Assembly (NCBI GenBank): GCA_963849705.1
Contig: CAWKII010000001.1
Location: 89,681 to 153,680, forward strand
Origin: an uncultured Acidimicrobiaceae bacterium
GTDB lineage: Bacteria > Actinomycetota > Acidimicrobiia > Acidimicrobiales > RAAP-2
DNA length: 64,000 nucleotides
Direction of reading: 5' to 3'
In this document: in pieces, positions 1,385 to 45,656 of the stretch
How the letters are laid out: every line of letters begins with the position of its first letter
Position numbering within the stretch: position 1 is the first letter of the stretch
Translations under genes and position numbers: made by a program
The notes under the pieces: generated by a model
Told to the model about the DNA's origin: nothing
The model's input: the letters and a program-made list of their open reading frames with translations, nothing else
Databases searched by the model: none

Positions 1385-2508
1385 GAGTACTCCAGCGCCT
1401 CTCGGTAGGCCACCAGGTGTTGATCGACGCAGGCGTCCCACGTGAAGCGCTCGGCCCGTGTTCGAGCGCGTTCGGCGATAGCGATACGTTCGTCGTGGCC
1501 TTCGTTGAGTCCTTCGAGCAGCGACGTCGCGAGGGCCGTGGCGTCGCCAATGGGCACCAGCCGGGCCGCGCCCGAGGCGACCTCGGCCATCACGGTTCCG
1601 TCGGTCGTCACCACCGACGCGCCACAGGCCATCGCTTCGACGACGGGAAGACCGAAGCCCTCTCCCCGCGACGGGTAAGCCACCACGCGTGCTCGCCGGT
1701 AGAGCGCCGGAAGGGCGTCGTCGTCGACGAAACCAAGACGACGGACGCGCCCTTTGAAGGGATGCTCCTCGAGTTGAGTCACGAAGGGCCCCGTCCCCCA
1801 CCCGGCTTGGCCCGCGAGCCACAGCTCGACGTCGCGGTCTTCGCGGGCCACTTCCGCGAAGGCTTCTAACAGCACATCGAGACCCTTCCTCGGTTCCGCG
1901 GTGCCCACGAATAAGACGTACGGGACATCGGCGTTCAGTGAGTGACGACGAAGGGTGCTCTCGTCATCGACGTCGCGAGGTTGAAAGTGCTCAAGATCGA
2001 CCCCGAGGGGAGCGACGACAATGGGCGCGTGGGCTGGCAGAATCTCCTCGAGCAGGCGGGCACTAAAGGCACTCACCAGCACCAATACTCGCGCGTGTTG
2101 CGAGGCGAAGGTGATGGCCCGACGAAAGAACGTCACCTTCGTTCGCTCGTGCCACTCGGGGTTGGTAAAGAAGGTCAGGTCGTGAATCGTTACGACGGTG
2201 GGGGTCGATCCCCGTCGGGGCATCGTGTAGTGCGGTCCGTGCCAGAGCTCGACGTCGCGCGAGGTCTGGCTCGTTCCGAGAACCCACGCCTCGTAGGTCA
2301 GCCTCGCCGCGCGCGCGTTGGGCACGATGTTCGCCAAAGTTGAGTGTGGCGAGCGCTCGCGCCAACGTTGTGCGTCATCACGTCGGGTCACCAGTGTCGT
2401 ATCGAGTCCTCGCTCGGGCAGTCGTATCGCCAGCTCGGAGATGTACCGTCCGGCGCCCGCGATGCGCGGGGGAACGGCCGACACGTCAAGGGCGACTTTC
2501 ACTGCCAT
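1381..2508 (-). CDS. Glycosyltransferase family 4
   Basis: VVTIHDLTF, FVGTAEPRKG and YPSRGEGFGLPVVEAMACG (intact E-x7-E). Start is ATG 2508 or GTG 2502. Confidence 0.9.
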   Translation of the reverse strand: MAVKVALDVSAVPPRIAGAGRYISELAIRLPERGLDTTLVTRRDDAQRWRERSPHSTLANIVPNARAARLTYEAWVLGTSQTSRDVELWHGPHYTMPRRGSTPTVVTIHDLTFFTNPEWHERTKVTFFRRAITFASQHARVLVLVSAFSARLLEEILPAHAPIVVAPLGVDLEHFQPRDVDDESTLRRHSLNADVPYVLFVGTAEPRKGLDVLLEAFAEVAREDRDVELWLAGQAGWGTGPFVTQLEEHPFKGRVRRLGFVDDDALPALYRRARVVAYPSRGEGFGLPVVEAMACGASVVTTDGTVMAEVASGAARLVPIGDATALATSLLEGLNEGHDERIAIAERARTRAERFTWDACVDQHLVAYREALEYS

Positions 2509-3572
2509 CCTTTGAGGTGGTCGAGCGCGACGTTTCGCCACGTCAGAGCCGCCACGCTCGCACGACGCCGCTCACGAGCGACGTCGTCGTTCTCGAGCGT
2601 GAGCGACGTGGCGAGTCCGGCGGCGATTGAGTCGACGTCCGAGGGATCCACGAGCACTACTTCTGAGTTATCGGTCACGCTCGGTGTGGTCACGCTAGCC
2701 ACGACGCGCGCTCCCTCGCGCAGTGCTTCGACCGGCGGCAGTCCCCACCCTTCGGCCCTCGGCACGTAGGCGACCACCGTCGCGTCGCGGTAGAGGCCCT
2801 TCAACATCGAACGCGACACCGATCCCAGCACCACGGCATCGGCGCTGTCCACGCGGCCCCAGCCGGAGGGGCCGACCAACACCAGTGGACCGAGCTCGGC
2901 ACCCTTCGAGCGCGCCTGCGCGTGTGCGGCGACAAGACGGTCCAGATTCTTGCGTGGCTCTCGCGTCCCGGCGTAGAGCGTGAAGGGGCCCGACACTCCT
3001 CGCGCTTCGAGCGCGTCTCGTACCTCGCGGCCGCTGGCACCGACCGTCTCGTCGTCGACGCCGAGACGGACGTCGTGCAGTCGCGATTCGTTGAAACCAT
3101 CGGCGATCAGGCGTGAACGCAAGCCCGGTGCGGCGCAGAAGAGTCGTACGTCTCGATTTTTTAGCATCTCAAGTCGCCGCTCGTGATAGCGAACTCCCCG
3201 CGGGGTACTCGCTTCAGGCTCGTCGCGCCAGAGGAGGTCGTAGAGGGTGACCGAGTGCACGGCGTCGCCACGTCCCCCACTAAAGGGACCGGTGAGCGAC
3301 GTGGCGTGCACGACATCACTAGAGGACGGCACTCCCAAGGGCCAACGATCCCAGAGCAGTGTCAGTACCGCCAACGGCGCGGTGGTGACTCTCTGCAGCT
3401 TCAGATCCTCCACGTCGCGACTTGGCGCACCGCGCGGAACCACCCCGATGAGGCGAAACGACTCGTCTTGTAGCGAGTTCAGCCCCTTCACCAGACCACG
3501 AACGTAGGTGGCGATGCCCCCCGGTTGAGGTCGATAGAACTGATCAAGCGAGAGGGTGATCGTTCGCGTCAC
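2499..3572 (-). CDS. Glycosyltransferase family 4
   Basis: YAGTREPRKNL and PRAEGWGLPPVEALREG. GTG start overlaps the upstream stop. Confidence 0.88.
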   Translation of the reverse strand: MTRTITLSLDQFYRPQPGGIATYVRGLVKGLNSLQDESFRLIGVVPRGAPSRDVEDLKLQRVTTAPLAVLTLLWDRWPLGVPSSSDVVHATSLTGPFSGGRGDAVHSVTLYDLLWRDEPEASTPRGVRYHERRLEMLKNRDVRLFCAAPGLRSRLIADGFNESRLHDVRLGVDDETVGASGREVRDALEARGVSGPFTLYAGTREPRKNLDRLVAAHAQARSKGAELGPLVLVGPSGWGRVDSADAVVLGSVSRSMLKGLYRDATVVAYVPRAEGWGLPPVEALREGARVVASVTTPSVTDNSEVVLVDPSDVDSIAAGLATSLTLENDDVARERRRASVAALTWRNVALDHLKGWQ

Positions 3573-30565: not shown

Positions 30566-31360
30566 TCACCCGACGGTCACATTGAAGAGCCGAGCCGAGT
30601 TGGCCGACGTCGCCTCTCGCAGCGCCAGCGGGTCGTCGCCGCGCAGCTCGGCGACGTACTGGCCGACGAGCGACACGAAGGCCGGCTCGTTCTTCTTTCC
30701 GCGATGGGGCACGGGCGCCAGAAACGGGCTGTCCGTTTCGACGTGCAGACGATCGAGGGGAACGAGTCGCGTCGCCTCGCGCACGAGATCCGCGTTCTTG
30801 AAGGTCACGATTCCCGAGATAGAAATGTCGCACCCGAGCGCCAAGCACCCCTCGGCGTCCTCCGGCGTTCCCGTGAAGCAGTGGATCACCGTGCGCGCCG
30901 GAACGCCCTCACTCGACAAGATCGCGAACAGGTCGTCGAAGGCGTCGCGCGCGTGCACGACGAGAGCGAGGTCGAGCTCCGAAGCGAGGGCGATCTGAGC
31001 GCTAAACGCGCGGCGCTGGGCCTCCCGGGGGGAGTGTTCGTAGAAGTAGTCCAGCCCGCACTCCCCTATGCCCACCAGGCGAGGGTGGCCGGATCGAGCC
31101 AAATCCGCCACGGGATCAAGGTCGTCTTTGGCGTCATGGGGGTGAAGTCCGACCGTGGCGAAGATCTCTACGGGACCGGCCAGTTCCGTCAGGCCAAGGG
31201 CCTCGACGGAGCTGCGAAGCCCCGTTCCCACGACGATGACTCGATCGACGCCGGCCACGTGGGCCCGTTCGAGGGTGGCGATCACTTCCTCGCGAGCGTT
31301 GTGCGGGGTGTCGAGGAACTCATCTTGGAGGTGACAGTGGGCGTCCGTCCAGCCGCTCAT
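30566..31360 (-). CDS. tatD: TatD family hydrolase
   Basis: DAHCH, VGLHPH, IGECGLDY, VVHARDA, VIHCFTG and ETDSPFLAP. Confidence 0.95.
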   Translation of the reverse strand: MSGWTDAHCHLQDEFLDTPHNAREEVIATLERAHVAGVDRVIVVGTGLRSSVEALGLTELAGPVEIFATVGLHPHDAKDDLDPVADLARSGHPRLVGIGECGLDYFYEHSPREAQRRAFSAQIALASELDLALVVHARDAFDDLFAILSSEGVPARTVIHCFTGTPEDAEGCLALGCDISISGIVTFKNADLVREATRLVPLDRLHVETDSPFLAPVPHRGKKNEPAFVSLVGQYVAELRGDDPLALREATSANSARLFNVTVG

Positions 31361-32889
31361 TGATCGCTCTGTATACGTGGGAACAGGGACTCGCCCTTGG
31401 ACACGGTGAGGCCCCCTGGGTACCTCCCCCACTCAACGGCCGCCGTAAAAGGCTCGAAGGTCGGGGATCCCCCGAGGCCGAGACGTCGCCAGATCTCCTC
31501 GGCCACACTCGGCATGGCGGGCGAGACCAGTATCGCCACGATGCGAATCGCCTCGAGCGCGTCGCCCATCACCGCGTCGAGGTCATCGCCCGGCTCCATC
31601 TTCCAGGGCGCGTGCGTCTCCAGGTAGGCGTTGGTGGCGCCGATCAGTTCCCACGTCGCCTCCAGGGCTCGCTGGGGCGCGAAGTGCTCCCACGCGTCAG
31701 CGGCGGCGGCCGTCGTCGCGACGGCGACCTGGCGCAGCGACGAGTGGAGCCGGGGCGCCGGACCAAGGCCCTGACACTTTGAGACCACGACCGCGGCCAC
31801 CCGGGCCACGAGATTACCGAGGTTATTAGCCAAGTCGGTGTTGTAACGCGCGGCGATTCCCTCCAGGGAGAACTCGCCATCGTTGCCGAGAGCCGTTTCG
31901 CGAAGCAGGTAGTAGCGAAGAGGGTCGACCCCGAACTCCTGGGAGAGCGCGATGGGCTCGATGTCGGTGATCTTGACCGCGCCCGCGGCCGCCATGGTCT
32001 TGCCGAGCTTCTCTCCCCCGATCAAGAGCCATCCATTCACGTGGACGTGGTGCACGGGATCGAGGCCCGCGGCCATGCACATGGCCGGCCACCAGACGGT
32101 GTGAAAGCGCAGGATCTCCTTGCCGATCAAGTGGTTCGAGTGGGGCCACCAGTACTCGACCTCGTCGTGGTCGCGTCCGTACCCGATGGCCGACAGGTAG
32201 TTGATGAGGGCGTCGTACCAGACGTAGAACACGTGACGCTCGTCCCAGGGCACGGGAACGCCCCAGGTGATCGAGGTACGGGTAATCGAGATGTCGCGAA
32301 GCCCGCCCTTAATAAAGGACAGCGCTTCGTTGTACTTCGTCTCCGGGGTGACAAAGCCCGGGTGGGCCTCGAAGTGGTCGAGCAGTCGGTCCTGAAAGGC
32401 GCTCAGGCGAAAGAACCAGTTCTCTTCTTCCATCTCCGTTAAGACGCTGTGGTGGATGGGACAGCGACCTTCGTCGCTCGCTTCAAGGGTGTAGTAGTCC
32501 TCGCAGCTCACGCAGTAGAGCCCCTTGTAGACGTCTTTGTAGATAAAGCCGTTGTCGTAGATCGTGGAGAGGAACTTCTGCACTGTCTCGTAGTGGCGGG
32601 GCTCGGTAGTGCGGATGAAGTCGTCGTAGCTGATGTCAAGGACGTCCCAAGCGAGCTTGAAGCGCTCGGAGGTTCGATCGGTCCACTCTTTCGGCGAGTA
32701 GCCGTTCTTGGTGGCCGCGTCGGCCATCTTCTGTCCGTGCTCGTCGGTGCCGGTGAGAAACTTGACCTCGTCGCCGGCCAGGCGGTGCCAGCGGGCGAGC
32801 GCGTCCGCGTTTACCGTCGTGTAGGCCGAGCCAACATGGGGAGCGTCATTGACGTAGTAGATGGGCGTCGTCAGATAAAAGCGGCTCAT
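31357..32889 (-). CDS. metG: Methionine-tRNA ligase (short MetRS1 type)
   Basis: YLTTPIYYVN..PH.G, LTGTDEHGQK, CVSCE, YVWYDALINY, GKEILRFH and LANNLGNL. Confidence 0.97.
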   Translation of the reverse strand: MSRFYLTTPIYYVNDAPHVGSAYTTVNADALARWHRLAGDEVKFLTGTDEHGQKMADAATKNGYSPKEWTDRTSERFKLAWDVLDISYDDFIRTTEPRHYETVQKFLSTIYDNGFIYKDVYKGLYCVSCEDYYTLEASDEGRCPIHHSVLTEMEEENWFFRLSAFQDRLLDHFEAHPGFVTPETKYNEALSFIKGGLRDISITRTSITWGVPVPWDERHVFYVWYDALINYLSAIGYGRDHDEVEYWWPHSNHLIGKEILRFHTVWWPAMCMAAGLDPVHHVHVNGWLLIGGEKLGKTMAAAGAVKITDIEPIALSQEFGVDPLRYYLLRETALGNDGEFSLEGIAARYNTDLANNLGNLVARVAAVVVSKCQGLGPAPRLHSSLRQVAVATTAAAADAWEHFAPQRALEATWELIGATNAYLETHAPWKMEPGDDLDAVMGDALEAIRIVAILVSPAMPSVAEEIWRRLGLGGSPTFEPFTAAVEWGRYPGGLTVSKGESLFPRIQSDQ

Positions 32890-32914
32890 GGCTAAAAGAG
32901 GTTAGTAAGTAATG

Positions 32915-33769
32915 TCACTTGTCTTTTCGGGCGTCCAGCGCGAGTTGGTAGACGTCGCGACGAGAAACTCCCAGCGTCTCGGCCACGTAGTCGACGGCGT
33001 CGCGCGTGGTGGCCCCGTCGTTCCACTGCTCGTGCAGAGCCGCGAGCACGACGTGGTCCTCGAGCGCCGTTTCGGGGGTCTCTCCCTCCAAGACGACCAC
33101 GATCTCTCCCACGACGTCTCTCGCGGCGAAGATCGACGCCACCTCTTCCAAGGTTCCTCGTACTAACTCCTCGTGCAGTTTCGTCAGTTCGCGGGCCACC
33201 ACCACGCGGCGCTCGGGATAGATCGACGCGAGTTCGCGCAGTACCGAGGCGAGACGCTGCGGGGACTCGTAGAAGACGACGGTTCGCTCCTCGTTCGCCC
33301 ACTCCCCATAACGCTGTTGGCGTTCGCCCGACTTTCGGGGCAAGAAACCCTCCATCACGAATCGTTCGCTCGACAGTCCACTGATGGACAGGGCGGCAAC
33401 GACGGCCGAGGGGCCCGGCGCGGTGCTCACGCGGAGACCGGCCGCGATGACGGCCGCCACGGCCCGCGCCCCGGGGTCGGAGATGCCCGGGGTCCCGGCG
33501 TCACTGATAAGAACGACCAGCTCGCCCGAGCGCACGCGCGCCACGATCTCCTCGCTCTGGGCGGCCTCGTTGTGTTCATGCAGCGACTGAAGTCTCCGAC
33601 CGGTCGCGATATCGTTCGCGCTAAAGAGCACCCGTGAGTGACGCGTGTCCTCGCAGTAGATCACGTCGGCGTCGCGGAAAAGTTCGAGTGCTCGACGCGA
33701 GAGATCGCCCAGGTTGCCCAGGGGGGTCGCCACGAGCACCAACTGGCCGGCGGTCTTGGTCTCTTCCAC
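32915..33769 (-). CDS. rsmI: 16S rRNA C1402 2'-O-methyltransferase
   Basis: LVATPLGNLGD, CEDTR, ISDAGTPGISDPG, FYESP and ARELTKLHEE. Confidence 0.96.
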   Translation of the reverse strand: MEETKTAGQLVLVATPLGNLGDLSRRALELFRDADVIYCEDTRHSRVLFSANDIATGRRLQSLHEHNEAAQSEEIVARVRSGELVVLISDAGTPGISDPGARAVAAVIAAGLRVSTAPGPSAVVAALSISGLSSERFVMEGFLPRKSGERQQRYGEWANEERTVVFYESPQRLASVLRELASIYPERRVVVARELTKLHEELVRGTLEEVASIFAARDVVGEIVVVLEGETPETALEDHVVLAALHEQWNDGATTRDAVDYVAETLGVSRRDVYQLALDARKDK

Positions 33770-33822
33770 GCTGATTCCCTCGTTTGGCTGGCGACGCGCT
33801 CTAGCCACTAACATTGTCACCT

Positions 33823-33906
33823 ATGTCAAAGCGGACCGTGAAGCGCAAACTACGCGCAAAAAAGAAGGCCAACCACGGCAAAAAGCCGAACTGCGGTCGC
33901 GGCTAG
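33823..33906 (+). CDS. 50S ribosomal protein bL37-like, 27 aa
   Basis: Manual translation MSKRTVKRKLRAKKKANHGKKPNCGRG carries the KANHGKxPN signature of mycobacterial bL37. TAACAT -10 lies 8 nt upstream, and the ORF fills the intergenic gap exactly. Confidence 0.85.
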   Translation: MSKRTVKRKLRAKKKANHGKKPNCGRG

Positions 33907-34760
33907 CTCTCGAGCCGGCCATCCCACGCACAGTCCCGCTCGGCTAGCAACGTCGCGAGCGGTGTCGGTCGATCACTGACGAGTCCGTCCACACCCAGAT
34001 CGAGCAGTCGTGCCATCTCGTCGACCTCGTTGATCGTCCAGACGTGCACCGCGATATCGCAGCGGTGCGCCGCCTCAACAAAGGACTCGGTGACGACGTC
34101 CACCTGGCCGAATGTCGCGGGCACCTGAAAGGCGCACACCGGAGGAACGAGGGGATGGTCGTCAAGGTGGGAGAAGTAGAAAGCGGCCGCCTCTTGAGTG
34201 GCCGCGGAGGTGGCCACCTCGGGCGCGAGCGTGCGGAATCTCTCGATGGCCTGGTCGTGAAAGGACGCCACGATCACCGAATCGGTGATCTCTAAGTACC
34301 GAAGCTGCTCGTAGAGCAACTTCTCGTACGGCTCGACGTCGGGATCGGTGCGTTTGATATCGAGATTCAACAGCACGCCAGGAAACGCCGTGGCCACTTC
34401 CTCTAAGGTCGCCACCGCGAAACGCCGGTCCGTGGCTCCACGATCGCGATGAAGATACGCACTCGCCTCACGCCCTGGCGTGGCCACGTCTCCCTCGATC
34501 CACCAGTACGCGTTATCCATCTCTGCTATCTCGTTCCGCGTGAGCTGCGCGATCTCGCCGTGATGGTTGGTCGTTCGATCGACGGCGCTGTCGTGACAGA
34601 CAACCACCTGGCGATCGTGAGTCGCGTGAACGTCAAGTTCGATGGCCGTTGCTCCGACAGAGAGGGCGTGTTCAATCGCGAAGAGTGTCGACGACGGACC
34701 TTCGAACGATCCGCCTTGGTGCGCGAAAGCGATGACGCGCCGCGCGAGCCAGGGGTTCAC
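33903..34760 (-). CDS. Glycerophosphodiester phosphodiesterase
   Basis: FAHQGG, IELDVHATHD..VVCHD..VDRTT, NLDIK, VHVWTIN and GVDGLVSDRP. Confidence 0.92.
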   Translation of the reverse strand: MNPWLARRVIAFAHQGGSFEGPSSTLFAIEHALSVGATAIELDVHATHDRQVVVCHDSAVDRTTNHHGEIAQLTRNEIAEMDNAYWWIEGDVATPGREASAYLHRDRGATDRRFAVATLEEVATAFPGVLLNLDIKRTDPDVEPYEKLLYEQLRYLEITDSVIVASFHDQAIERFRTLAPEVATSAATQEAAAFYFSHLDDHPLVPPVCAFQVPATFGQVDVVTESFVEAAHRCDIAVHVWTINEVDEMARLLDLGVDGLVSDRPTPLATLLAERDCAWDGRLES

Positions 34761-35083
34761 TTCGCGGGAAGTCCGTACGGGTACAGCCTCAGTCGCATGC
34801 GGTGTTCTAAGTAGAACGCCAGGCCCGGTACGAAACCCGCGAAGAGCATGAGACCCAGCAGGCCCGGGTTTAAACGAAACTTCATCACCAGGTTGAAGCA
34901 CGCGATCATATAGATCGGATAGAGCACTAGGCCGTGTCCAATACCGACGACCTTGACGAAGAGGTACATGTGCTTCCACAGCGTTAGGTCGACGGTGTGC
35001 AAGAAAAGGGTGATGAAGAGAACAATCAACGTCGTTCCGGTTATGTACGACATGGCGCGATAGCGCACGAACGTGCCAGTCAC
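34757..35083 (-). CDS. DUF3817 family membrane protein
   Basis: YRAMSYITG, GIGHG..Y.IY and AGFVPGLAFYLE. Confidence 0.78.
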   Translation of the reverse strand: MTGTFVRYRAMSYITGTTLIVLFITLFLHTVDLTLWKHMYLFVKVVGIGHGLVLYPIYMIACFNLVMKFRLNPGLLGLMLFAGFVPGLAFYLEHRMRLRLYPYGLPAK

Positions 35084-35455
35084 TTAGTGTCCCCAGAGTC
35101 TCTTCTTGGGTTCATGCGAGAGCCGCTCGAGGTGGTCGTTGTAGGCGGCGAGGGTGGGGTCTTCCTCGTCGGCAGCCCGCCGGGCCGCCAGCGCGTCGGC
35201 GCGCATCTTCTCCTCGTACTCGCGACGAGCCTTTTCCTTGTGTTCGCTGACTTTTTCGGCGTTGAGCAGCGAGTACCACCCGAGTACGCCCAGGACGCCA
35301 ATGACCGGCCACTCGATGGAGTAGAGGAAGCTTAGAGAGTTCCCCTGAATCGCTCGGCCCACCTGCCACCACGCCGCCAGGGCGCAGGTCACGATCCAAA
35401 CGATCAGGGCAATGTGCAGTCCGATCGCTCGGAGTGAGAAATACTTAGAGCGCAC
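35084..35455 (-). CDS. Conserved actinobacterial two-TM membrane protein
   Basis: WWQVGRA.QGN.LSFLYSIEWP and a C-terminal DPTLAAYNDHL. Directly upstream of the DUF3817 gene. Confidence 0.7.
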   Translation of the reverse strand: MRSKYFSLRAIGLHIALIVWIVTCALAAWWQVGRAIQGNSLSFLYSIEWPVIGVLGVLGWYSLLNAEKVSEHKEKARREYEEKMRADALAARRAADEEDPTLAAYNDHLERLSHEPKKRLWGH

Positions 35456-35510
35456 TGAGCCATCCTAACGAGCCAATCTCAATTCAAAAGAGGGGTCGTA
35501 AGATGGGTCG

Positions 35511-36350
35511 GTGCCCGACATGTCGAACGCGCCGTTTTCTTGGCACCACCTCAATGAATGGAATTTGGGTGTTATTCCCATCATCCTGATGCTCTGCGCG
35601 GGTCTGATCTATGTCCAGTACGCCCGCAAGGTTCCTACGTGGCCGACGGTGCGCTCGTTCTGTTTTGGGGCCGGCCTCTTCGTGACCTTCATCGCGACGC
35701 AGTCCTTCATCGGGTTCTACGACATGGAGTATTTCAGCGATCACATGATCCAACACCTCTTGTTGATCATGGTGGCCGCCCCGCTCTTCGCCCTGAGCGC
35801 CCCGCTCGACCTCGCCTACGACGCCGGCAGCGCCACGATGCGACGATGGCTCGACAGTAAGTTCATGGAGCGCCTCACCCACCCGCTCGTCGCGTTCGCC
35901 CTGTACTTCTTCTTCATTCCCTTCACCCACTTGACGGGGTTTATGAACCTGATGATGACGCACATGTGGCTCCATCACTTTGAGGAGATCGGCTTCTTGG
36001 TAGTGGGCTATCTCTTCTTTCGTGCGGCCTTTGGACTCGAACGCGGCGTCAAGCTCCACCCGGGCCTTCGCCTGGTCTACGTCATGGCCGCCGTGCCGGT
36101 CGACACTTTTACCGGACTGGTCTTGTCGAACTCCTCGCGTGTTCCCTACTCCAACTTCGCCACGATGGCACCCCGGGGTTCGAGCGCGGCGTGGCGACTC
36201 TCCGACATCAAACTCGGAGGCGCCATCATGTGGATTGGCGGCGACGCCTTGATGCTGCTGGCGTGCATCCCCATCGCCGTCATGTGGGTGAAGTGGGAGA
36301 TGATCCAGACGAAGAAACTCGACGCGATCCTCGACGCGCAAGGGATCTGA
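35511..36350 (+). CDS. ctaG: Cytochrome c oxidase assembly factor (caa3-type CtaG family)
   Basis: FSDHMIQHLLLIMVAAPL, THP, HHFEE..F.VVGYLFF and DIKLGGAIMWIGG. Confidence 0.85.
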   Translation: MPDMSNAPFSWHHLNEWNLGVIPIILMLCAGLIYVQYARKVPTWPTVRSFCFGAGLFVTFIATQSFIGFYDMEYFSDHMIQHLLLIMVAAPLFALSAPLDLAYDAGSATMRRWLDSKFMERLTHPLVAFALYFFFIPFTHLTGFMNLMMTHMWLHHFEEIGFLVVGYLFFRAAFGLERGVKLHPGLRLVYVMAAVPVDTFTGLVLSNSSRVPYSNFATMAPRGSSAAWRLSDIKLGGAIMWIGGDALMLLACIPIAVMWVKWEMIQTKKLDAILDAQGI

Positions 36351-39942: not shown

Positions 39943-40527
39943 GTGAACGTAGGGACGTTTCTTGGCATCTTCGCCCTGATGTTCCTCCTCGAACTTCCTG
40001 ACAAGACGATGATCGCCACGATCATCATGAGTACCAAGGCCCGCCCCTCGTCGATCGTCATCGGCGCCTCGGCCGGCTTCGTGGTACAGATGGGGATTGC
40101 CGTCGGCGCCGGCGGCCTCCTCACGCTCCTTCCCGTGCACGTGAAGGACGTGATCGTGGCGGTGCTGTTTCTCGCGGGCGCGGGCTACCTCTTGCTCTCT
40201 CGCGAGAGTACCGCCGAAAAAAAAGGCGCTGAAGAGGCACGCAGCGAGAAACCGTCCACCCGGAGTCGAGAGATTGCCACGGCCTTCGGCGTCATCTTCG
40301 TCAGTGAGTTCGGCGACCTCACCCAGATTCAGGCGGCCAACTTCGCAGCGAAGACCCACGAACTCCTCGGTGTCTTCGTCGCCGCCTCCCTGGCTCTCAT
40401 CTGTGTCTCGTTCCTCGGGGCGTACGGCGGGCAGTTCTTACAGCGCATCGTCCCCGTGACGTGGATACGCCTCATCGGAGGCCTCATCTTCGCCGCGCTG
40501 GGCATCTACACCTTGGTCCGCCTATGA
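39943..40527 (+). CDS. TMEM165/GDT1 (UPF0016) Mn/Ca transporter
   Basis: Two-repeat membrane topology with ELPDKT and EFGDLTQ motifs. Confidence 0.88.
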   Translation: MNVGTFLGIFALMFLLELPDKTMIATIIMSTKARPSSIVIGASAGFVVQMGIAVGAGGLLTLLPVHVKDVIVAVLFLAGAGYLLLSRESTAEKKGAEEARSEKPSTRSREIATAFGVIFVSEFGDLTQIQAANFAAKTHELLGVFVAASLALICVSFLGAYGGQFLQRIVPVTWIRLIGGLIFAALGIYTLVRL

Positions 40528-41165
40528 GCGTTACTCGTCGCAACGAGTTGTTGAACCTGGCCGAGAGAGCGAAGGGCTTCATGCCGCGTGACGAGGGCCT
40601 CGCACTCTTCTCCTTCGCGCTCGAACTGGGTGAGCGCATTCCTTCGAGCACGTGGCTCGAAGTGGGCGCGTGGTGTGGCAAGTCCGCCCTCTACCTAGGC
40701 GCGGCGGCCGAGGCGACCAAGAGCGTGCTCTACTCACTCGATCATCATCACGGCAGCGAGGAGAACCAGGAGGGCTGGGAGCACTTTGATCCCTCCCTCG
40801 TCGACCCGCGTGACGGACGCCTCAACACCCTGCCCACCTGGCAGCGCACAATTGCCGACGCCCGTTTAGAAGAGACGGTGATCGGACTCGTCGGCCACTC
40901 CTCCGTCGTCGCTCGTCACTTCGCCCAGCCACTCGAGCTCCTCTTCATCGATGGCGGGCACGGACACGACGCCGCCTGGAGCGACTACCGCGACTGGTCG
41001 CCCAAGGTGGTGGTCGGTGGAGTGCTCCTCATCCACGACGTCTTCCCTAACCCCGAGGACGGGGGACGCCCGCCCTACGAGATCTATCTGGCCGCCCTTG
41101 AGAGCACGACCTTCGTCGACGTAGCGAACGAGGGCTCGCTGCGAGCCCTACGACGCGTTCGTTGA
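40524..41165 (+). CDS. Class I SAM methyltransferase (Methyltransf_24 type), MMP MeT1-like
   Basis: LEVGAWCGKS, SLDHHHGSEE, LFIDGGH and IHDVF..P.DGG.PPY. ATGA overlap with the GDT1 gene. Confidence 0.85.
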   Translation: MSVTRRNELLNLAERAKGFMPRDEGLALFSFALELGERIPSSTWLEVGAWCGKSALYLGAAAEATKSVLYSLDHHHGSEENQEGWEHFDPSLVDPRDGRLNTLPTWQRTIADARLEETVIGLVGHSSVVARHFAQPLELLFIDGGHGHDAAWSDYRDWSPKVVVGGVLLIHDVFPNPEDGGRPPYEIYLAALESTTFVDVANEGSLRALRRVR

Positions 41166-42236
41166 GCGAAGCGGACAGCCCGGTTCGGGCAGGTCGAGCG
41201 GCGAGGTCAGCTCGCCGTGACGGAAGATTCCCGCCGCCCCGGACGAGGAGGTCAACGCGTCGGCCGCCAAGATTATCGCCGCCGCGGTGTAGGACGTGAC
41301 CTCGTGAGGGGGGAAGGTCACGCCGCCGGGGTAGGCGATGCCCGTCACGTACGCGCCGTCATCGCGTCGATGCAGACGGGTGCAGGCGAAGAGGTCGAGG
41401 GCCTCGCTCGTGTGGCCCAGCGCGTCGAGGGCCAGCACGCACTCCGCCGTTTCGGCGGCCGTCACCCAGTCGTTGGTCGAGACGCAGCGCACGCCGAGAC
41501 CGTCCATCACGTGGCGCTCCCAGCCGTCGCTCAGGCGCTTCTCGCCGCCGGCTCCACGAAGCGCTCCACAGAAGATCGGGTAGTACCAGTCCATGGCGAA
41601 CTCGTTCTTCGGGGCGAACGCTCCGGGGTGATGGGCCACGGCGTGTCCCAGGCGTGCCGCGGCCAGCTCCCACTCGGGCCTCGCCGAGTCGAGTCGCTCG
41701 GCGAGCGCGACGGCACAACAGATCGAGTGAAAGATGGACGACGAACCGCTCAAGAGGGCGTAGCTCTCGGGGTGTCCCTGCGCGTCGAGGGACCAGCGGA
41801 TCGTGCCGTCACCCATCTGCCAGCGCAACACGAAGTCCATCGCCTTTTCCACCACGGGCCAGAGTTGGGCGGCGAAGTCCACGTCGTTCGTCGCCAGCAC
41901 GTAGTGGTAGAGGCCAGCCGCCACGTAGGCGCACACGTTGGTGTCGAGGCGGGTGTCCTTCGGTCGCGCCCCCACGTAGTAGTTGAACCAGCTGCCGTCG
42001 CCGAGTTGGGTGTCGGCCAACCAGCGATAGGCCGCGCGCGCCTCGTTGCGGTAGCCCGTGACCGTTAGGGCCATCGCCACCTCCACGTGGTTCCACGGGT
42101 CGCAGTGTCCGCCCACGAACCAGGGGATCTGGCCGCTGCGAACCTGCAGGGACGCGAGGTAGCGCGCCGTATCGGCCAGCTCCTCGCTCGTCATCACGCC
42201 GGGTACGCCGCCGAGCGATCTCGTGGTTGAGCTCAC
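41148..42236 (-). CDS. Alpha6/alpha6-barrel ('prenyltransferase/squalene oxidase repeat') protein, candidate MMP hydrolase MmpH-like
   Basis: IPWF.GGH.DPWNHVE.AMAL, QLGDGSW, DTN..AY.A.G, FAMDWYYP and WVTAAETAEC. No DxDD cyclase motif seen. Confidence 0.75.
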   Translation of the reverse strand: MSSTTRSLGGVPGVMTSEELADTARYLASLQVRSGQIPWFVGGHCDPWNHVEVAMALTVTGYRNEARAAYRWLADTQLGDGSWFNYYVGARPKDTRLDTNVCAYVAAGLYHYVLATNDVDFAAQLWPVVEKAMDFVLRWQMGDGTIRWSLDAQGHPESYALLSGSSSIFHSICCAVALAERLDSARPEWELAAARLGHAVAHHPGAFAPKNEFAMDWYYPIFCGALRGAGGEKRLSDGWERHVMDGLGVRCVSTNDWVTAAETAECVLALDALGHTSEALDLFACTRLHRRDDGAYVTGIAYPGGVTFPPHEVTSYTAAAIILAADALTSSSGAAGIFRHGELTSPLDLPEPGCPLRSTNAS

Positions 42237-42949
42237 TGGGGTTTTCGCAGGTACAGGACGAGGGACTTACCCATGACGGGCGAAAGGACCTGCTCGGCGT
42301 ATCTCGTGAGGGCGGGCTTTTTCATGATGTCCCAGACCAGCAGCTGGTGGTAGCGCTTCACCAGTGGGTGCTCGTCGTTGGTCGTGCCGACGTAGCACTT
42401 GAGCCACCAGTAGGGGCTGTGCAGGCCGTGGGCGTAGTGGTGTCCCGTGACGACCATGCCGGTCGAGGTGAGACGCTGGGCGAGCACCGAGCGGCGATAG
42501 ATGCGGATGTGCCCCCCGGGCACGCTGTGGTACTCGTCCGAGATCGCCCAGTTGATGAGCTCGGGCCCAAAGCGCGGCACGGTAATGGCCATGGTGCCAC
42601 CGGGTCGAAGAACGCGCGCGAGTTCGCGCATGGCCGAGAGGTCGTCAGGGATGTGCTCTAAGACCTCAGAACAGATCACCCGATCAAACGCTCCGTCGGG
42701 AAAGGGCAGGTGCAGGGCGTCACCCTGGACGACGTGGGCGTGAACGGACCCCTCGGCCAGTTCTCCCGCCTCGAGCATGGCGAGAAACATGGCGGCCACG
42801 CCGTTCACTTCGTCGCGCCCAGCGTCGAGTGCCACCACGCTGGCGCCTCGTCGGGCCGCCTCAAAGGCGTGGCGCCCGAAGCCGCAACCGAGGTCGAGCA
42901 CCTTGTCGCCGCGTTGGAGGCCCAGTCGCTCGTACTTAGCGGTCAGCAT
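42233..42949 (-). CDS. Class I SAM methyltransferase (Methyltransf_11 type)
   Basis: VLDLGCGFGRH, GDALHLPFPDGAFD..ICSEVLEH, LRPGG, GGHIRIY and HGLHSPYWWLKC. Confidence 0.9.
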   Translation of the reverse strand: MLTAKYERLGLQRGDKVLDLGCGFGRHAFEAARRGASVVALDAGRDEVNGVAAMFLAMLEAGELAEGSVHAHVVQGDALHLPFPDGAFDRVICSEVLEHIPDDLSAMRELARVLRPGGTMAITVPRFGPELINWAISDEYHSVPGGHIRIYRRSVLAQRLTSTGMVVTGHHYAHGLHSPYWWLKCYVGTTNDEHPLVKRYHQLLVWDIMKKPALTRYAEQVLSPVMGKSLVLYLRKPQ

Positions 42950-44319
42950 CAGTCAAAGATCATGGAGTCGGGCAGCGCCCGACCGTTCAGAATCGCGTCG
43001 TAACACGCCGCCGTGCCGCGCGCCGTGACCTGCCACGTGAAGCGCTCGATGACGCGCTGACGCCCGGCGGCGCCGAGTCGCTCGCGCAGGTCGTCGTCGT
43101 CGAGCAGTGACCGGATGGCGTCCACCAGTGCTTCGGGGTTATTGGGCTCCACCAACAGACCGGTCTGCCCGCTCGTGCCGACCACCTCAGGCAGGGCTCC
43201 CCCGGTCGTCGCCACCACCGGCACGCCACAACTCATGGCCTCGATCGCCGGGAGGGAGAACCCTTCGTAGAGGCTGGGCACGATGGCGATCTCCGCCTCG
43301 CCGTAGAGGCGCGCGAGCTCTTCGTCGCTGACGCCAGAGATGGTGGTGACGATGTCGGTGAGCCCGAGACGCTCCAGCGCCTTCGCCACGCGCCCTCCCT
43401 TCTGCGGTTGACCGATGACGATGAGATCCACCTCGCGCTCAGCGCGGAGCTTGGCGATGGCCTCGAGGAGCGGTACGAGTCCCTTCATGGGCACGTCGCT
43501 GCTCGTCGTCACCATCAGTCGGCCCTTCTTCTTCACGACGTCGGCGTAGGGCTTGAAGACGTCGGCGTCAACGCCCACCGGCACGACCGTGAGGCGATCG
43601 AGAGGGACACCCATCTGGGCGTGAATGTCCGCTTTGGAGTTATGCGACACCGTGAGGACCGCGGGCAGCTGCTTGAGGACGCGGACCTGCATGCGCAGAA
43701 ATCCGAACCAGCGGCGCGTGGTCCACCGCTTGAATCTCGTTTCAGCGTGATCGAGCGCGATGGAGCGATCGACGGTGATCGGGTGGTGCAGGGTCTCAAG
43801 GAGGGGCCAGCCTTGACGGTGCAACTTCAAGATCCCCGGTCCGATGCACTGGTCATCGTGAATGATGTCGAAGTCACCTCGTCGATGTCGCAACAGTTTC
43901 GCCGCCCGTAACGAGTAGGCAAACGGCTCACCGAAGCCCGAACTCAACATGATGGCGAACTCACTGACGTCGGCGAAGGACGTGAACTCCGAGCGCGCAG
44001 GAACTCGAAACGGGTCGGGGTGGCGATAAAGATCCAGGCCGCGAACCGGGGTGAAGCCCACGCCCTCATCGAGTTCGGGCCACGGGGGACCCGAAAAGAC
44101 CTCCACGCTGTGTCCGAGCGCCACCAGCTCACGAGTCAGGTGCCGGGTGTAGACACCTTGTCCCCCGCAGCGCGGATTGCCCCGGTAGACCAAAAAGGCG
44201 ACGCGGTACTTGCTCGGTTGGGCCGGAGCGGCATCGACGCGAGCGGGCAACGTGAGAGCACGGCTGCGAGCCCACGACGCCTTTGTTTCTGCGATGGTGC
44301 GAGCGAGCGAGCGGGGCAC
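42949..44319 (-). CDS. Glycosyltransferase family 4, candidate MMP mannosyltransferase ManT-like (start uncertain)
   Basis: YRGNPRCGGQGVY, TLHHPITVDR, PVGVD, SSDVPMKG and PSLYEGFSLPAIEAMSCG. Confidence 0.88.
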   Translation of the reverse strand: MPRSLARTIAETKASWARSRALTLPARVDAAPAQPSKYRVAFLVYRGNPRCGGQGVYTRHLTRELVALGHSVEVFSGPPWPELDEGVGFTPVRGLDLYRHPDPFRVPARSEFTSFADVSEFAIMLSSGFGEPFAYSLRAAKLLRHRRGDFDIIHDDQCIGPGILKLHRQGWPLLETLHHPITVDRSIALDHAETRFKRWTTRRWFGFLRMQVRVLKQLPAVLTVSHNSKADIHAQMGVPLDRLTVVPVGVDADVFKPYADVVKKKGRLMVTTSSDVPMKGLVPLLEAIAKLRAEREVDLIVIGQPQKGGRVAKALERLGLTDIVTTISGVSDEELARLYGEAEIAIVPSLYEGFSLPAIEAMSCGVPVVATTGGALPEVVGTSGQTGLLVEPNNPEALVDAIRSLLDDDDLRERLGAAGRQRVIERFTWQVTARGTAACYDAILNGRALPDSMIFD

Positions 44320-44423
44320 GGGGCAACTTTCCTAATTAGAGGGGTCCACCATTCTCCCCGAATTTCTTAAGGGCCACAAATGGCAAGCCCAGCAGCCTAT
44401 TTGGGTGACTACGCTTGCAAATC

Positions 44424-45656
44424 ATGGACCTGACCTACCCCCCAGAAGCTGAATCCTTTCGAAAAGAGATTCGCGCGTGGCTTGAAGAGAACCTGCCGAC
44501 GGGCTGGTTCGAGCCGGGATTCTCCCTGAGCCCCGACGAGCGTCAACAGTTCAACGAGACCTGGACCAAGAAGCTCTTCGACGGCGGATGGATCTGCGCC
44601 GGATGGCCCGTCGAGTACGGAGGCAAGGGGCTGTCGCTGATGGATCAGGTCGTACTCAACGAAGAGTTCGCTAAGGCCAACGCCCCGCTGCGCGCTGACT
44701 TCTTCGGCGACACGCTGGTCGGCCCCACCATCCTCCAGTGGGGCACCGATGAGCAGAAGAAAGAGTTCATCCCCGGCATTTTGGACGGCTCCATCGCGTG
44801 GTGCCAGGGATTCTCCGAACCCAACTCCGGCTCGGACCTCGCGAGTCTGAAGACCTCCGCAGTGCTCGATGGCGACGAGTGGGTCATCAACGGTCAGAAG
44901 GTCTGGACGACGCAGGCCCTGCAGGCGGATTACGTGTTTCTCCTCACTCGCACTGACCCGCACGCGCCCCAGCACGCGGGAATCAGTTACATGCTCGTGC
45001 CCATGCACCAAGACGGCGTGGAGGTGCGTCCCATCACCCAGGTGGACGGCTCGGCCGAGTTCAACGAGGTCTTCTTCACCAACGCACGCTGCCCCAAGGA
45101 CAACGTGGTGGGTGGGGTGAACAACGGGTGGAAGGTCGCCATGACGACGCTCGGGTTTGAGCGGGGATCGTCCTCCACCACCGGATACCGGCGCTTCTTA
45201 AAGGAGTGGGAGTTCATCGTGAAAGAAGCTCGGCGCGTTCACAAGAGTGACGACGAACTGGTGCGCGACGCGCTGGTGAAGGCGTGGTCCAAGGTGAAGA
45301 TCATGGAGATCAACGGCTACCGCTCACTCACCGACGCGCTGAACAACACCCACCACGCCGCACTGCTGGGCGCGTGCAACAAGATGTTCTGGTCCGAGGC
45401 CCATCGCGCCTCGACGGACTTGGCCCTCGACATCGTCGGCATGGAGGCGCAGATCTTGACCGGTACGGGTCGCGTCGAAGGTCCGTCGGGGGTGCTGCGA
45501 CGAGGGCGGGCCGACTACCCCGTCTCGGAACTGCAGGCGGCGTTCTTCTTCTCCAGATCCGAGACGATCTGGGGCGGCACCGCCGAGATTCAGCGCAACA
45601 TCATCGGCGAGCGCGCCCTGGGTCTGCCCAAAGAGCCGAAGCCTCAGCTCGCCTGA
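44424..45656 (+). CDS. Acyl-CoA dehydrogenase (FadE-type)
   Basis: WCQGFSEPNSGSDLASL, INGQKVWT, FNEVFF, GFER and TIWGGTAEIQRNIIGER. Confidence 0.95.
   Translation: MDLTYPPEAESFRKEIRAWLEENLPTGWFEPGFSLSPDERQQFNETWTKKLFDGGWICAGWPVEYGGKGLSLMDQVVLNEEFAKANAPLRADFFGDTLVGPTILQWGTDEQKKEFIPGILDGSIAWCQGFSEPNSGSDLASLKTSAVLDGDEWVINGQKVWTTQALQADYVFLLTRTDPHAPQHAGISYMLVPMHQDGVEVRPITQVDGSAEFNEVFFTNARCPKDNVVGGVNNGWKVAMTTLGFERGSSSTTGYRRFLKEWEFIVKEARRVHKSDDELVRDALVKAWSKVKIMEINGYRSLTDALNNTHHAALLGACNKMFWSEAHRASTDLALDIVGMEAQILTGTGRVEGPSGVLRRGRADYPVSELQAAFFFSRSETIWGGTAEIQRNIIGERALGLPKEPKPQLA

Follow-up and report, generated by a model that had tools for sequence, protein, structure and literature searches.

Within a 64-kb stretch of DNA (positions 89,681 to 153,680 of contig CAWKII010000001.1, from an uncultured Acidimicrobiaceae bacterium; hereafter the window), we found four contiguous genes that very probably form the Acidimicrobiales orthologue of the mycobacterial cluster for the biogenesis of 3-O-methylmannose polysaccharide (MMP), working by the cycle described in Mycolicibacterium hassiacum. 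Their products are orthologous to the GT4 mannosyltransferase ManT, the methyltransferase pMeT3, the endomannosidase MmpH and the sugar 1-O-methyltransferase MeT1. Each of these proteins was searched against all PDB chain sequences. The MeT1-like protein matched only M. hassiacum MeT1 (6g7d, 6g80 and 6h40, E=2e-60), and the MmpH-like protein matched only M. hassiacum MmpH (7qsj, E=4e-101). The top match of the ManT-like protein was 7qsg, with E=1.7e-123 and a runner-up at 1e-25; under a generic deposition name, this entry holds the ManT structure from M. hassiacum published by Maranha et al. (2023). Matches to solved MMP enzymes at E-values of 1e-60 to 1e-123 are far beyond chance. There is no solved structure of pMeT3, and the PDB matches of the pMeT3-like protein were generic class I methyltransferases, a D-glucose O-methyltransferase among them.

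The locus L002 of Mycolicibacterium agri was used as the mycobacterial reference cluster. The four window proteins show 49-54% identity to their M. agri counterparts over near their full length: pMeT3 reaches 54% over 238 of 238 residues, including the C-terminal region (E=5e-91), and the other three lie between 48.5 and 51%, with 48.5% for ManT and 51% for MeT1. The pMeT3-like protein is therefore a full-length orthologue of the MHAS_04403/MSMEG_6483-type methyltransferase. In the reverse search, the four M. agri proteins pick out exactly these four genes within the window. Gene order and orientation are also the same in both loci: manT, pmeT3 and mmpH are co-directional and tightly spaced, with meT1 adjacent and on the other strand (in M. 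agri, manT, pmeT3 and mmpH on the plus strand and meT1 on the minus strand). The sequence-only reading of this DNA had proposed an MMP-type quartet and a reciprocal search as its check, and the PDB matches and the comparison with M. agri in both directions bear the proposal out. It had also pointed to a meT1-like gene on the opposite strand and coupled to a gene of the GDT1 family; both features were seen, but the strand is no peculiarity, as a convergent meT1 is canonical in M. agri. The ManT-like protein has a predicted start codon and about 37 N-terminal residues that are absent from mycobacterial ManT, and tblastn query coverages of 98-100% in the closest Acidimicrobiales loci suggest that this extension is kept there. 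Two further GT4-like open reading frames (ORFs), at about 1396-3107 of the window on the minus strand, belong to a separate gene group; they show only 28-30% identity to ManT and are unrelated to the cluster.

In the M. hassiacum cycle, MmpH fragments the mature polymer, ManT elongates the fragments, pMeT3 methylates them and MeT1 caps them (PMC9883506). Following this scheme, the MmpH-like endomannosidase would act on alpha-(1->4)-linked methylmannan already present in the cytoplasm and release defined oligomannoside primers, which the ManT-like enzyme would lengthen with mannose from GDP-mannose. The pMeT3-like methyltransferase would O-methylate the newly added units, and the MeT1-like enzyme would cap the free reducing ends by 1-O-methylation. 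We infer these activities and the nature of the polymer from the orthology, and likewise a role of the polymer as carrier of hydrophobic lipids or acyl-CoA, possibly tied to cold adaptation. An endo-mannosidase with an adjoining transporter gene could also be expected in a catabolic locus that scavenges environmental MMP or mannans. Such a function is most improbable, since the transporter is of the GDT1 cation type and not a sugar importer, a GDP-sugar glycosyltransferase and two methyltransferases are anabolic enzymes, and the mycobacterial hydrolase is itself required for biogenesis (PMC9883506).

The residues of ManT and MmpH were compared using the sets given in the same work. In the ManT-like protein the GDP-mannose site is conserved (Gly15, His142, Lys240, Asp293, Glu313, Gly314, Phe315, Leu317 and Glu321), with Leu291, a backbone contact, replaced by Val, as is likewise the case in PimA. 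Lys240, Glu313 and Glu321 are essential according to mutagenesis and Asp293 recognises guanine (PMC9883506), and the conservation of the donor-site residues argues for GDP-mannose as the donor. The MeT1-like protein has the motifs DHHHGSEE (residues 73-80) and IDGGH (residues 142-146), and IHD is also conserved. His146, in IDGGH, corresponds to His144 in the 6g7d chain; about 57 Acidimicrobiia-type and nine mycobacterial homologues all keep this His, DHH-GSEE-Q and IHD. In the MmpH-like protein, the catalytic base Glu262 and the candidate acid Asp47 (Asp46 in window numbering) are conserved, as are Trp49, Asn101, Met215, Tyr219 and Glu265, which makes seven of the 11 residues of the substrate site. 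The alignment of catalytic residues that the sequence-only reading had called for came out as it expected in ManT and MmpH, and so did its check of a His near residue 146 of the MeT1-like protein.

Several points weigh against the assignment to MMP biogenesis. Four substrate-site residues of MmpH are changed in the window (Asp50 to Asn, Phe102 to Val, Thr163 to Ser and Trp315 to Tyr), and three of these differences are fixed across the clade. The change of Asp50 to Ala strongly cuts the activity of M. hassiacum MmpH, and pMeT3 is biochemically uncharacterised even in mycobacteria (PMC9883506). The residue-level roles in MeT1 are judged from motif conservation, and no RNA-seq runs with the hydrolase gene were found. 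The fatty acid synthase I (FAS-I) system, which MMP is proposed to modulate, may or may not be present in these hosts. The cluster is known here from its genes and not from a glycan, a transcript or an activity.

By its residues, the window hydrolase is assigned to the MmpH family, and not to the mycobacterial site type. Positions 50, 102 and 315 (Asn49, Val101 and Tyr316 in window numbering) are Asn/Val/Tyr in 120 of 120 close homologues versus Asp/Phe/Trp in 120 of 120 mycobacterial ones. Among the genome loci, 69 carry this NVY signature and two carry NTY or NCY, while all 10 mycobacterial-type loci carry DFW. Tyr86 and Leu282 of the Acidimicrobiia-type proteins, versus Gln at both positions, are also clade-fixed, and Ser163 is rare (one of 120 other homologues). 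MmpH shows five radical clade-fixed differences, three of them in the described substrate site; ManT, pMeT3 and MeT1 show six, three and one, respectively, all conservative save Asn81 versus His in MeT1.

Family-wide variation of MmpH was analyzed in 332 clusters at 50% identity with E<=1e-30. Asp47, Trp49, Met215, Tyr219, Glu262 and Glu265 are practically invariant, and all tabulated full-length 50%-identity representatives but three divergent ones keep both Asp47 and Glu262. At position 50, Asn outnumbers Asp; position 315 holds either Trp or Tyr, and position 102 varies. Published mutagenesis left open the choice between Asp47 and Asp50 as the general acid (PMC9883506). Asn occupies position 50 throughout Acidimicrobiia and is also the residue found there most often in the family as a whole; this variation in nature speaks for Asp47 as the putative general acid.

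The sequence-only reading had suggested that the product may be a methylated glycan variant, and the clade-fixed pocket lends this some support. Tentatively, the same machinery may make a structurally distinct methylated alpha-mannan, unlike the mycobacterial polymer in its chain length or cleavage register, its methylation pattern, or extra acyl or acetyl groups such as those of the acetylated MMP (AMMP) of Streptomyces; this would refine the assignment to an MMP-type cluster rather than replace it. Besides the Asn/Val/Tyr signature and the fixed Tyr86 and Leu282, the wide variation of position 102 across the family and the lack of meT1 within 7 kb in some Ilumatobacteraceae-type loci are consistent with it. 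On the other hand, seven of the 11 site residues of MmpH, Asp47 and Glu262 among them, the donor site of ManT and the motifs of MeT1 are unchanged, and the pocket changes may be neutral co-variation.

Two natural fusions, P0247 (590 amino acid residues) and P0271 (606 amino acid residues), join a pMeT3-like methyltransferase and an MmpH domain in one chain. Their methyltransferase part is 54% identical to the window methyltransferase and their MmpH domain 44-51% identical to the window hydrolase, and P0247 has more than 15 members of identical length from JGI, ENA, Logan and NCBI, including an Actinomycetota metagenome-assembled genome (MAG). These fusions lend independent support to pMeT3 as a member of the pathway.

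None of the four cluster proteins has a dedicated model in NCBIfam, all matches being far under the cut-off; the MmpH-like protein gave a weak, sub-threshold match to TIGR01577 (oligosaccharide amylase) and, in Pfam, only a sub-threshold match to SQHop_cyclase_N. Since NCBIfam lacks a specific model and Pfam gives no above-threshold match for the hydrolase, routine annotation reads "prenyltransferase" or "hypothetical". With such generic or sub-threshold matches, and given the generic tailoring roles of GT4 enzymes and class I methyltransferases, the cluster might be thought to glycosylate and methylate a small molecule or lipid and merely to resemble the MMP genes. We consider this very unlikely, because the orthology is specific in all four proteins, an MMP-specific endomannosidase and an unusual sugar 1-O-methyltransferase among them, no biosynthetic core genes are found nearby (the neighbours are PepN, PfkB, an acyl-CoA dehydrogenase and an SDR), and the cluster is kept across the class in a housekeeping context.

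To describe the distribution of the MMP-type cluster, one genome per GTDB species was scanned for MmpH relatives, and the 80 best loci were examined. MmpH relatives were found in at least 600 species-level genomes. The best 80 of these are mostly labelled Acidimicrobiia (Acidimicrobiales or Acidimicrobiaceae, Ilumatobacteraceae, a Microthrixaceae MAG and a marine Sva0996 MAG); of the others, about nine are mycobacterial, two bear the label Acidobacteria, and some are labelled only broadly as actinobacterial. Further members of the MmpH family occur in Phycicoccus and in a Thermodesulfobacteriota MAG. Metagenomic sequences make up the 120 closest homologues of the window MmpH, to which they are 75-89% identical, and those with a name are called Acidimicrobiales or Acidimicrobiaceae bacterium. 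The closest relatives with 15-kb synteny are also Acidimicrobiales or Acidimicrobiaceae MAGs, which agrees with the Acidimicrobiia-like host proposed from the sequence. No cultured Acidimicrobiia carrier was found among the 80 loci and the 120 best matches of a sequence profile made with Ilumatobacteraceae, Microthrixaceae and Sva0996 members, which is no evidence that isolates lack the cluster.

The core of GT4, methyltransferase and MmpH genes is present in nearly all of the 80 loci where the flank allows it to be seen. In most of them meT1 is convergent beside mmpH; some have it upstream or shifted by a few kb. Eleven loci show no meT1 in the flanks retrieved, of up to 7 kb (L035, L036, L038, L042, L043, L049, L054, L060, L068, L069 and L084); they keep the core, and several are of Ilumatobacteraceae type. 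In these loci either the 1-O-methyl cap is absent or the gene is located elsewhere. One close relative with the same cluster, L004 (ENA ERZ25039497 contig_34400), shows a truncated GT4 call of 247 amino acid residues and a fused GDT1-MeT1 call of 291 amino acid residues, which are probably due to assembly indels and not to real gene decay.

The cluster is an old chromosomal trait of its hosts and not a recent import, because the flanking synteny is kept, the GC content is unremarkable, and the proteins form a separate clade. The order of acyl-CoA dehydrogenase, cluster, GDT1, PepN and PfkB genes is kept in 26-29 loci of the window's clade, the GC content of the cluster (0.655-0.659) is in line with that of the window, and a neighbor-joining tree sets the Acidimicrobiia-type (NVY) clade apart from the Mycobacteriales clade. 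Nearly all NVY-type loci are labelled Acidimicrobiia or unclassified actinobacteria. The identity of about 50% to mycobacterial proteins is similar to that with distant Acidimicrobiia homologues, as it would be if the cluster had been acquired recently from mycobacteria, or if the contig were contaminated or chimeric. Either event is scarcely credible: GC content, synteny, tree and residue signature rule out a recent transfer, the same sequence recurs in several independent soil metagenome runs (DNA only), and the cluster is present on two closed MAG chromosomes (L043 and L067).

The coordinates of the cluster and of the associated transporter gene are given in Table 1.

Table 1. Genes of the MMP-type cluster and the adjoining transporter gene, in window positions.
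Gene	Predicted product	Position	Strand	Length	Matches
manT-like	GT4 (GT-B fold) alpha-(1->4)-mannosyltransferase orthologue	42949..44319	-	456 aa	Pfam Glycos_transf_1 and Glyco_transf_4
pmeT3-like	Class I S-adenosylmethionine-dependent methyltransferase, putative MMP 3-O-methyltransferase orthologue	42233..42949	-	238 aa	Pfam Methyltransf_11
mmpH-like	(alpha/alpha)6-barrel endo-alpha-(1->4)-mannosidase orthologue	41148..42236	-	362 aa	Sole PDB match 7qsj
meT1-like	Sugar 1-O-methyltransferase orthologue	40524..41165	+	213 aa from ATG	Pfam Methyltransf_24
GDT1	GDT1/UPF0016 divalent-cation transporter, associated neighbour	39943..40527	+	194 aa	Pfam GDT1, two repeats, E=2.5e-32

Direct reading of the junctions showed that the stop of the manT-like gene and the start of the pmeT3-like gene have 1 nt in common (TGATG), and that the stop of the latter and the start of the mmpH-like gene have 4 nt in common (GTGA). 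The convergent mmpH-like and meT1-like genes overlap by 18 nt (41148-41165), and the stop of GDT1 overlaps the start of the meT1-like gene (ATGA, 40524-40527). The five genes with their positions, the overlaps of 1-4 nt, the 18-nt convergence and the motifs DHHHGSEE and IDGGH had all been described in the sequence-only reading and were recovered here, and gene calls in the public record of the source contig show the same five genes. An Rfam scan of the window found two tRNAs only, and a scan for promoters and terminators gave nothing informative around the cluster. The contig is of soil-metagenome origin, and the window is 99.9% identical to ENA ERZ25039529 contig_87686 (189.7 kb), with no differences inside the four genes. 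Nineteen window positions differ from that record by mismatches and indels of 1-2 nt (31332-36198, 46709 and 47093), and the CtaG gene, which is in two pieces there, is a single ORF of 279 amino acid residues at 35511-36350 in the window, which suggests that indel errors remain or that polishing differed.

GDT1 and meT1 are adjacent in about 17 related Acidimicrobiales loci (L005-L012, L017, L019, L024, L026-L028, L031, L032 and L062) and in none of the mycobacterial loci. The PepN gene ends 10 nt upstream of GDT1, and pepN, gdt1 and meT1 may form one transcript that converges on manT-pmeT3-mmpH. We regard GDT1 as an associated neighbour of meT1; any role in the pathway is hypothetical. On the other side of the cluster, an acyl-CoA dehydrogenase gene (44415-45656, plus strand) adjoins the GT4 gene divergently and is kept there in 26 related loci. 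This neighbour is suggestive because MMP binds acyl-CoAs; however, a functional link to the cluster is indistinguishable from general synteny, PepN and PfkB being equally conserved.

Accounts of MMP usually treat it as peculiar to nontuberculous mycobacteria, apart from a single old precedent in Streptomyces. Across Acidimicrobiia, the cluster is conserved, complete and intact, in hundreds of species-level genomes, and polymers of the MMP type probably extend far beyond the range given in textbooks. This suggests that methylated polysaccharides that bind lipids are common among actinobacteria and serve an ecological function, such as coping with cold or handling lipids in soils and waters. The known mechanism of MMP biogenesis is unchanged by these findings, and the variation of the MmpH pocket leaves room for a product or a cleavage pattern unlike that of mycobacterial MMP. 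A more far-reaching proposal, which we put forward as speculation and think rather doubtful as a whole, is that Acidimicrobiia of soil, freshwater, sea and sponges, which are abundant and for the most part uncultured, make polymethylated mannans class-wide; the chemistry of these would depart from that of mycobacterial MMP (chain length or cleavage register, methylation, or added groups) as dictated by the Asn50/Val102/Tyr315 pocket, would have a role unrelated to FAS-I regulation, and would perhaps tie GDT1 to a metal-dependent methyltransferase.

The other polymethylated polysaccharide of the mycobacterial cytoplasm for which binding of fatty acyl chains has been proposed is methylglucose lipopolysaccharide (MGLP). 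Unlike the window cluster, its pathway leads to a glucose-based, acylated polymer and uses other enzymes, and no orthologue of an MGLP enzyme was found among the four window proteins in the NCBIfam and PDB searches that were run. Alongside the 2023 study of the M. hassiacum enzymes, work by Ripoll-Rozada from 2019 reportedly deals with the mycobacterial MMP cluster. This cluster comprises MHAS_04402-04405 in M. hassiacum and MSMEG_6481-6484 in M. smegmatis (Maranha et al., 2023; PMC9883506). The window cluster resembles it in the four protein families (49-54% identity), in order and orientation as in M. agri, in tight or overlapping junctions and in conserved catalytic residues and motifs. It differs in its host, which belongs to the class Acidimicrobiia instead of Mycobacteriales, in Asn50, Val102 and Tyr315 of MmpH for Asp, Phe and Trp, plus Ser163, in the additional N-terminal residues (about 37) of ManT and in the translational coupling of meT1 to GDT1. 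The fold and the position of the catalytic base of MmpH are those of the GH15 and GH125 (alpha/alpha)6-barrel inverting hydrolases of clan GH-L (PMC9883506); however, sequence similarity to them is marginal and the Arg and Asp of their -1 subsite are absent from MmpH, and the window hydrolase is accordingly classified, by similarity, in the MmpH family and not in GH15 or GH125.

Outside mycobacteria, MmpH and ManT homologues have been reported for Corynebacterium, Rhodococcus, Streptomyces and Nocardia (PMC9883506). Streptomyces griseus makes AMMP, which has been characterised chemically (Harris and Gray, 1977, as cited in PMC9883506), and the Streptomyces ManT is 53% identical to that of M. 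hassiacum (PMC9883506). The Streptomyces system is thus a non-mycobacterial actinobacterial precedent, with a ManT about as distant from M. hassiacum as that of the window. In contrast, its MmpH site residues are reported as conserved with mycobacteria (PMC9883506) whereas those of the window differ, and the product of the window cluster, unlike the Streptomyces and mycobacterial polymers, is predicted from genes. Names beginning with "Acidimicrob" appear uncommented in the supplementary ConSurf alignments S7 (MmpH) and S10 (ManT), the latter listing an "Acidimicrobiales bacterium" (PMC9883506), and the JGI pipeline names some Acidimicrobiia-type proteins "MMP endo-(1,4)-3-O-methyl-alpha-D-mannosidase". 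Within the searchable library, our literature search returned no paper text pairing methylmannose with Acidimicrobi*. The occurrence of the cluster in a non-mycobacterial actinobacterium, which had been remarked on from the sequence, is therefore real but not singular, as the window is one of hundreds of such genomes and non-mycobacterial precedents are published. MMP-type clusters outside mycobacteria are already known, and the Acidimicrobiia cluster is not a new system; what is added to it here is an active-site variant that extends across the class and a distribution wider than the one previously discussed.

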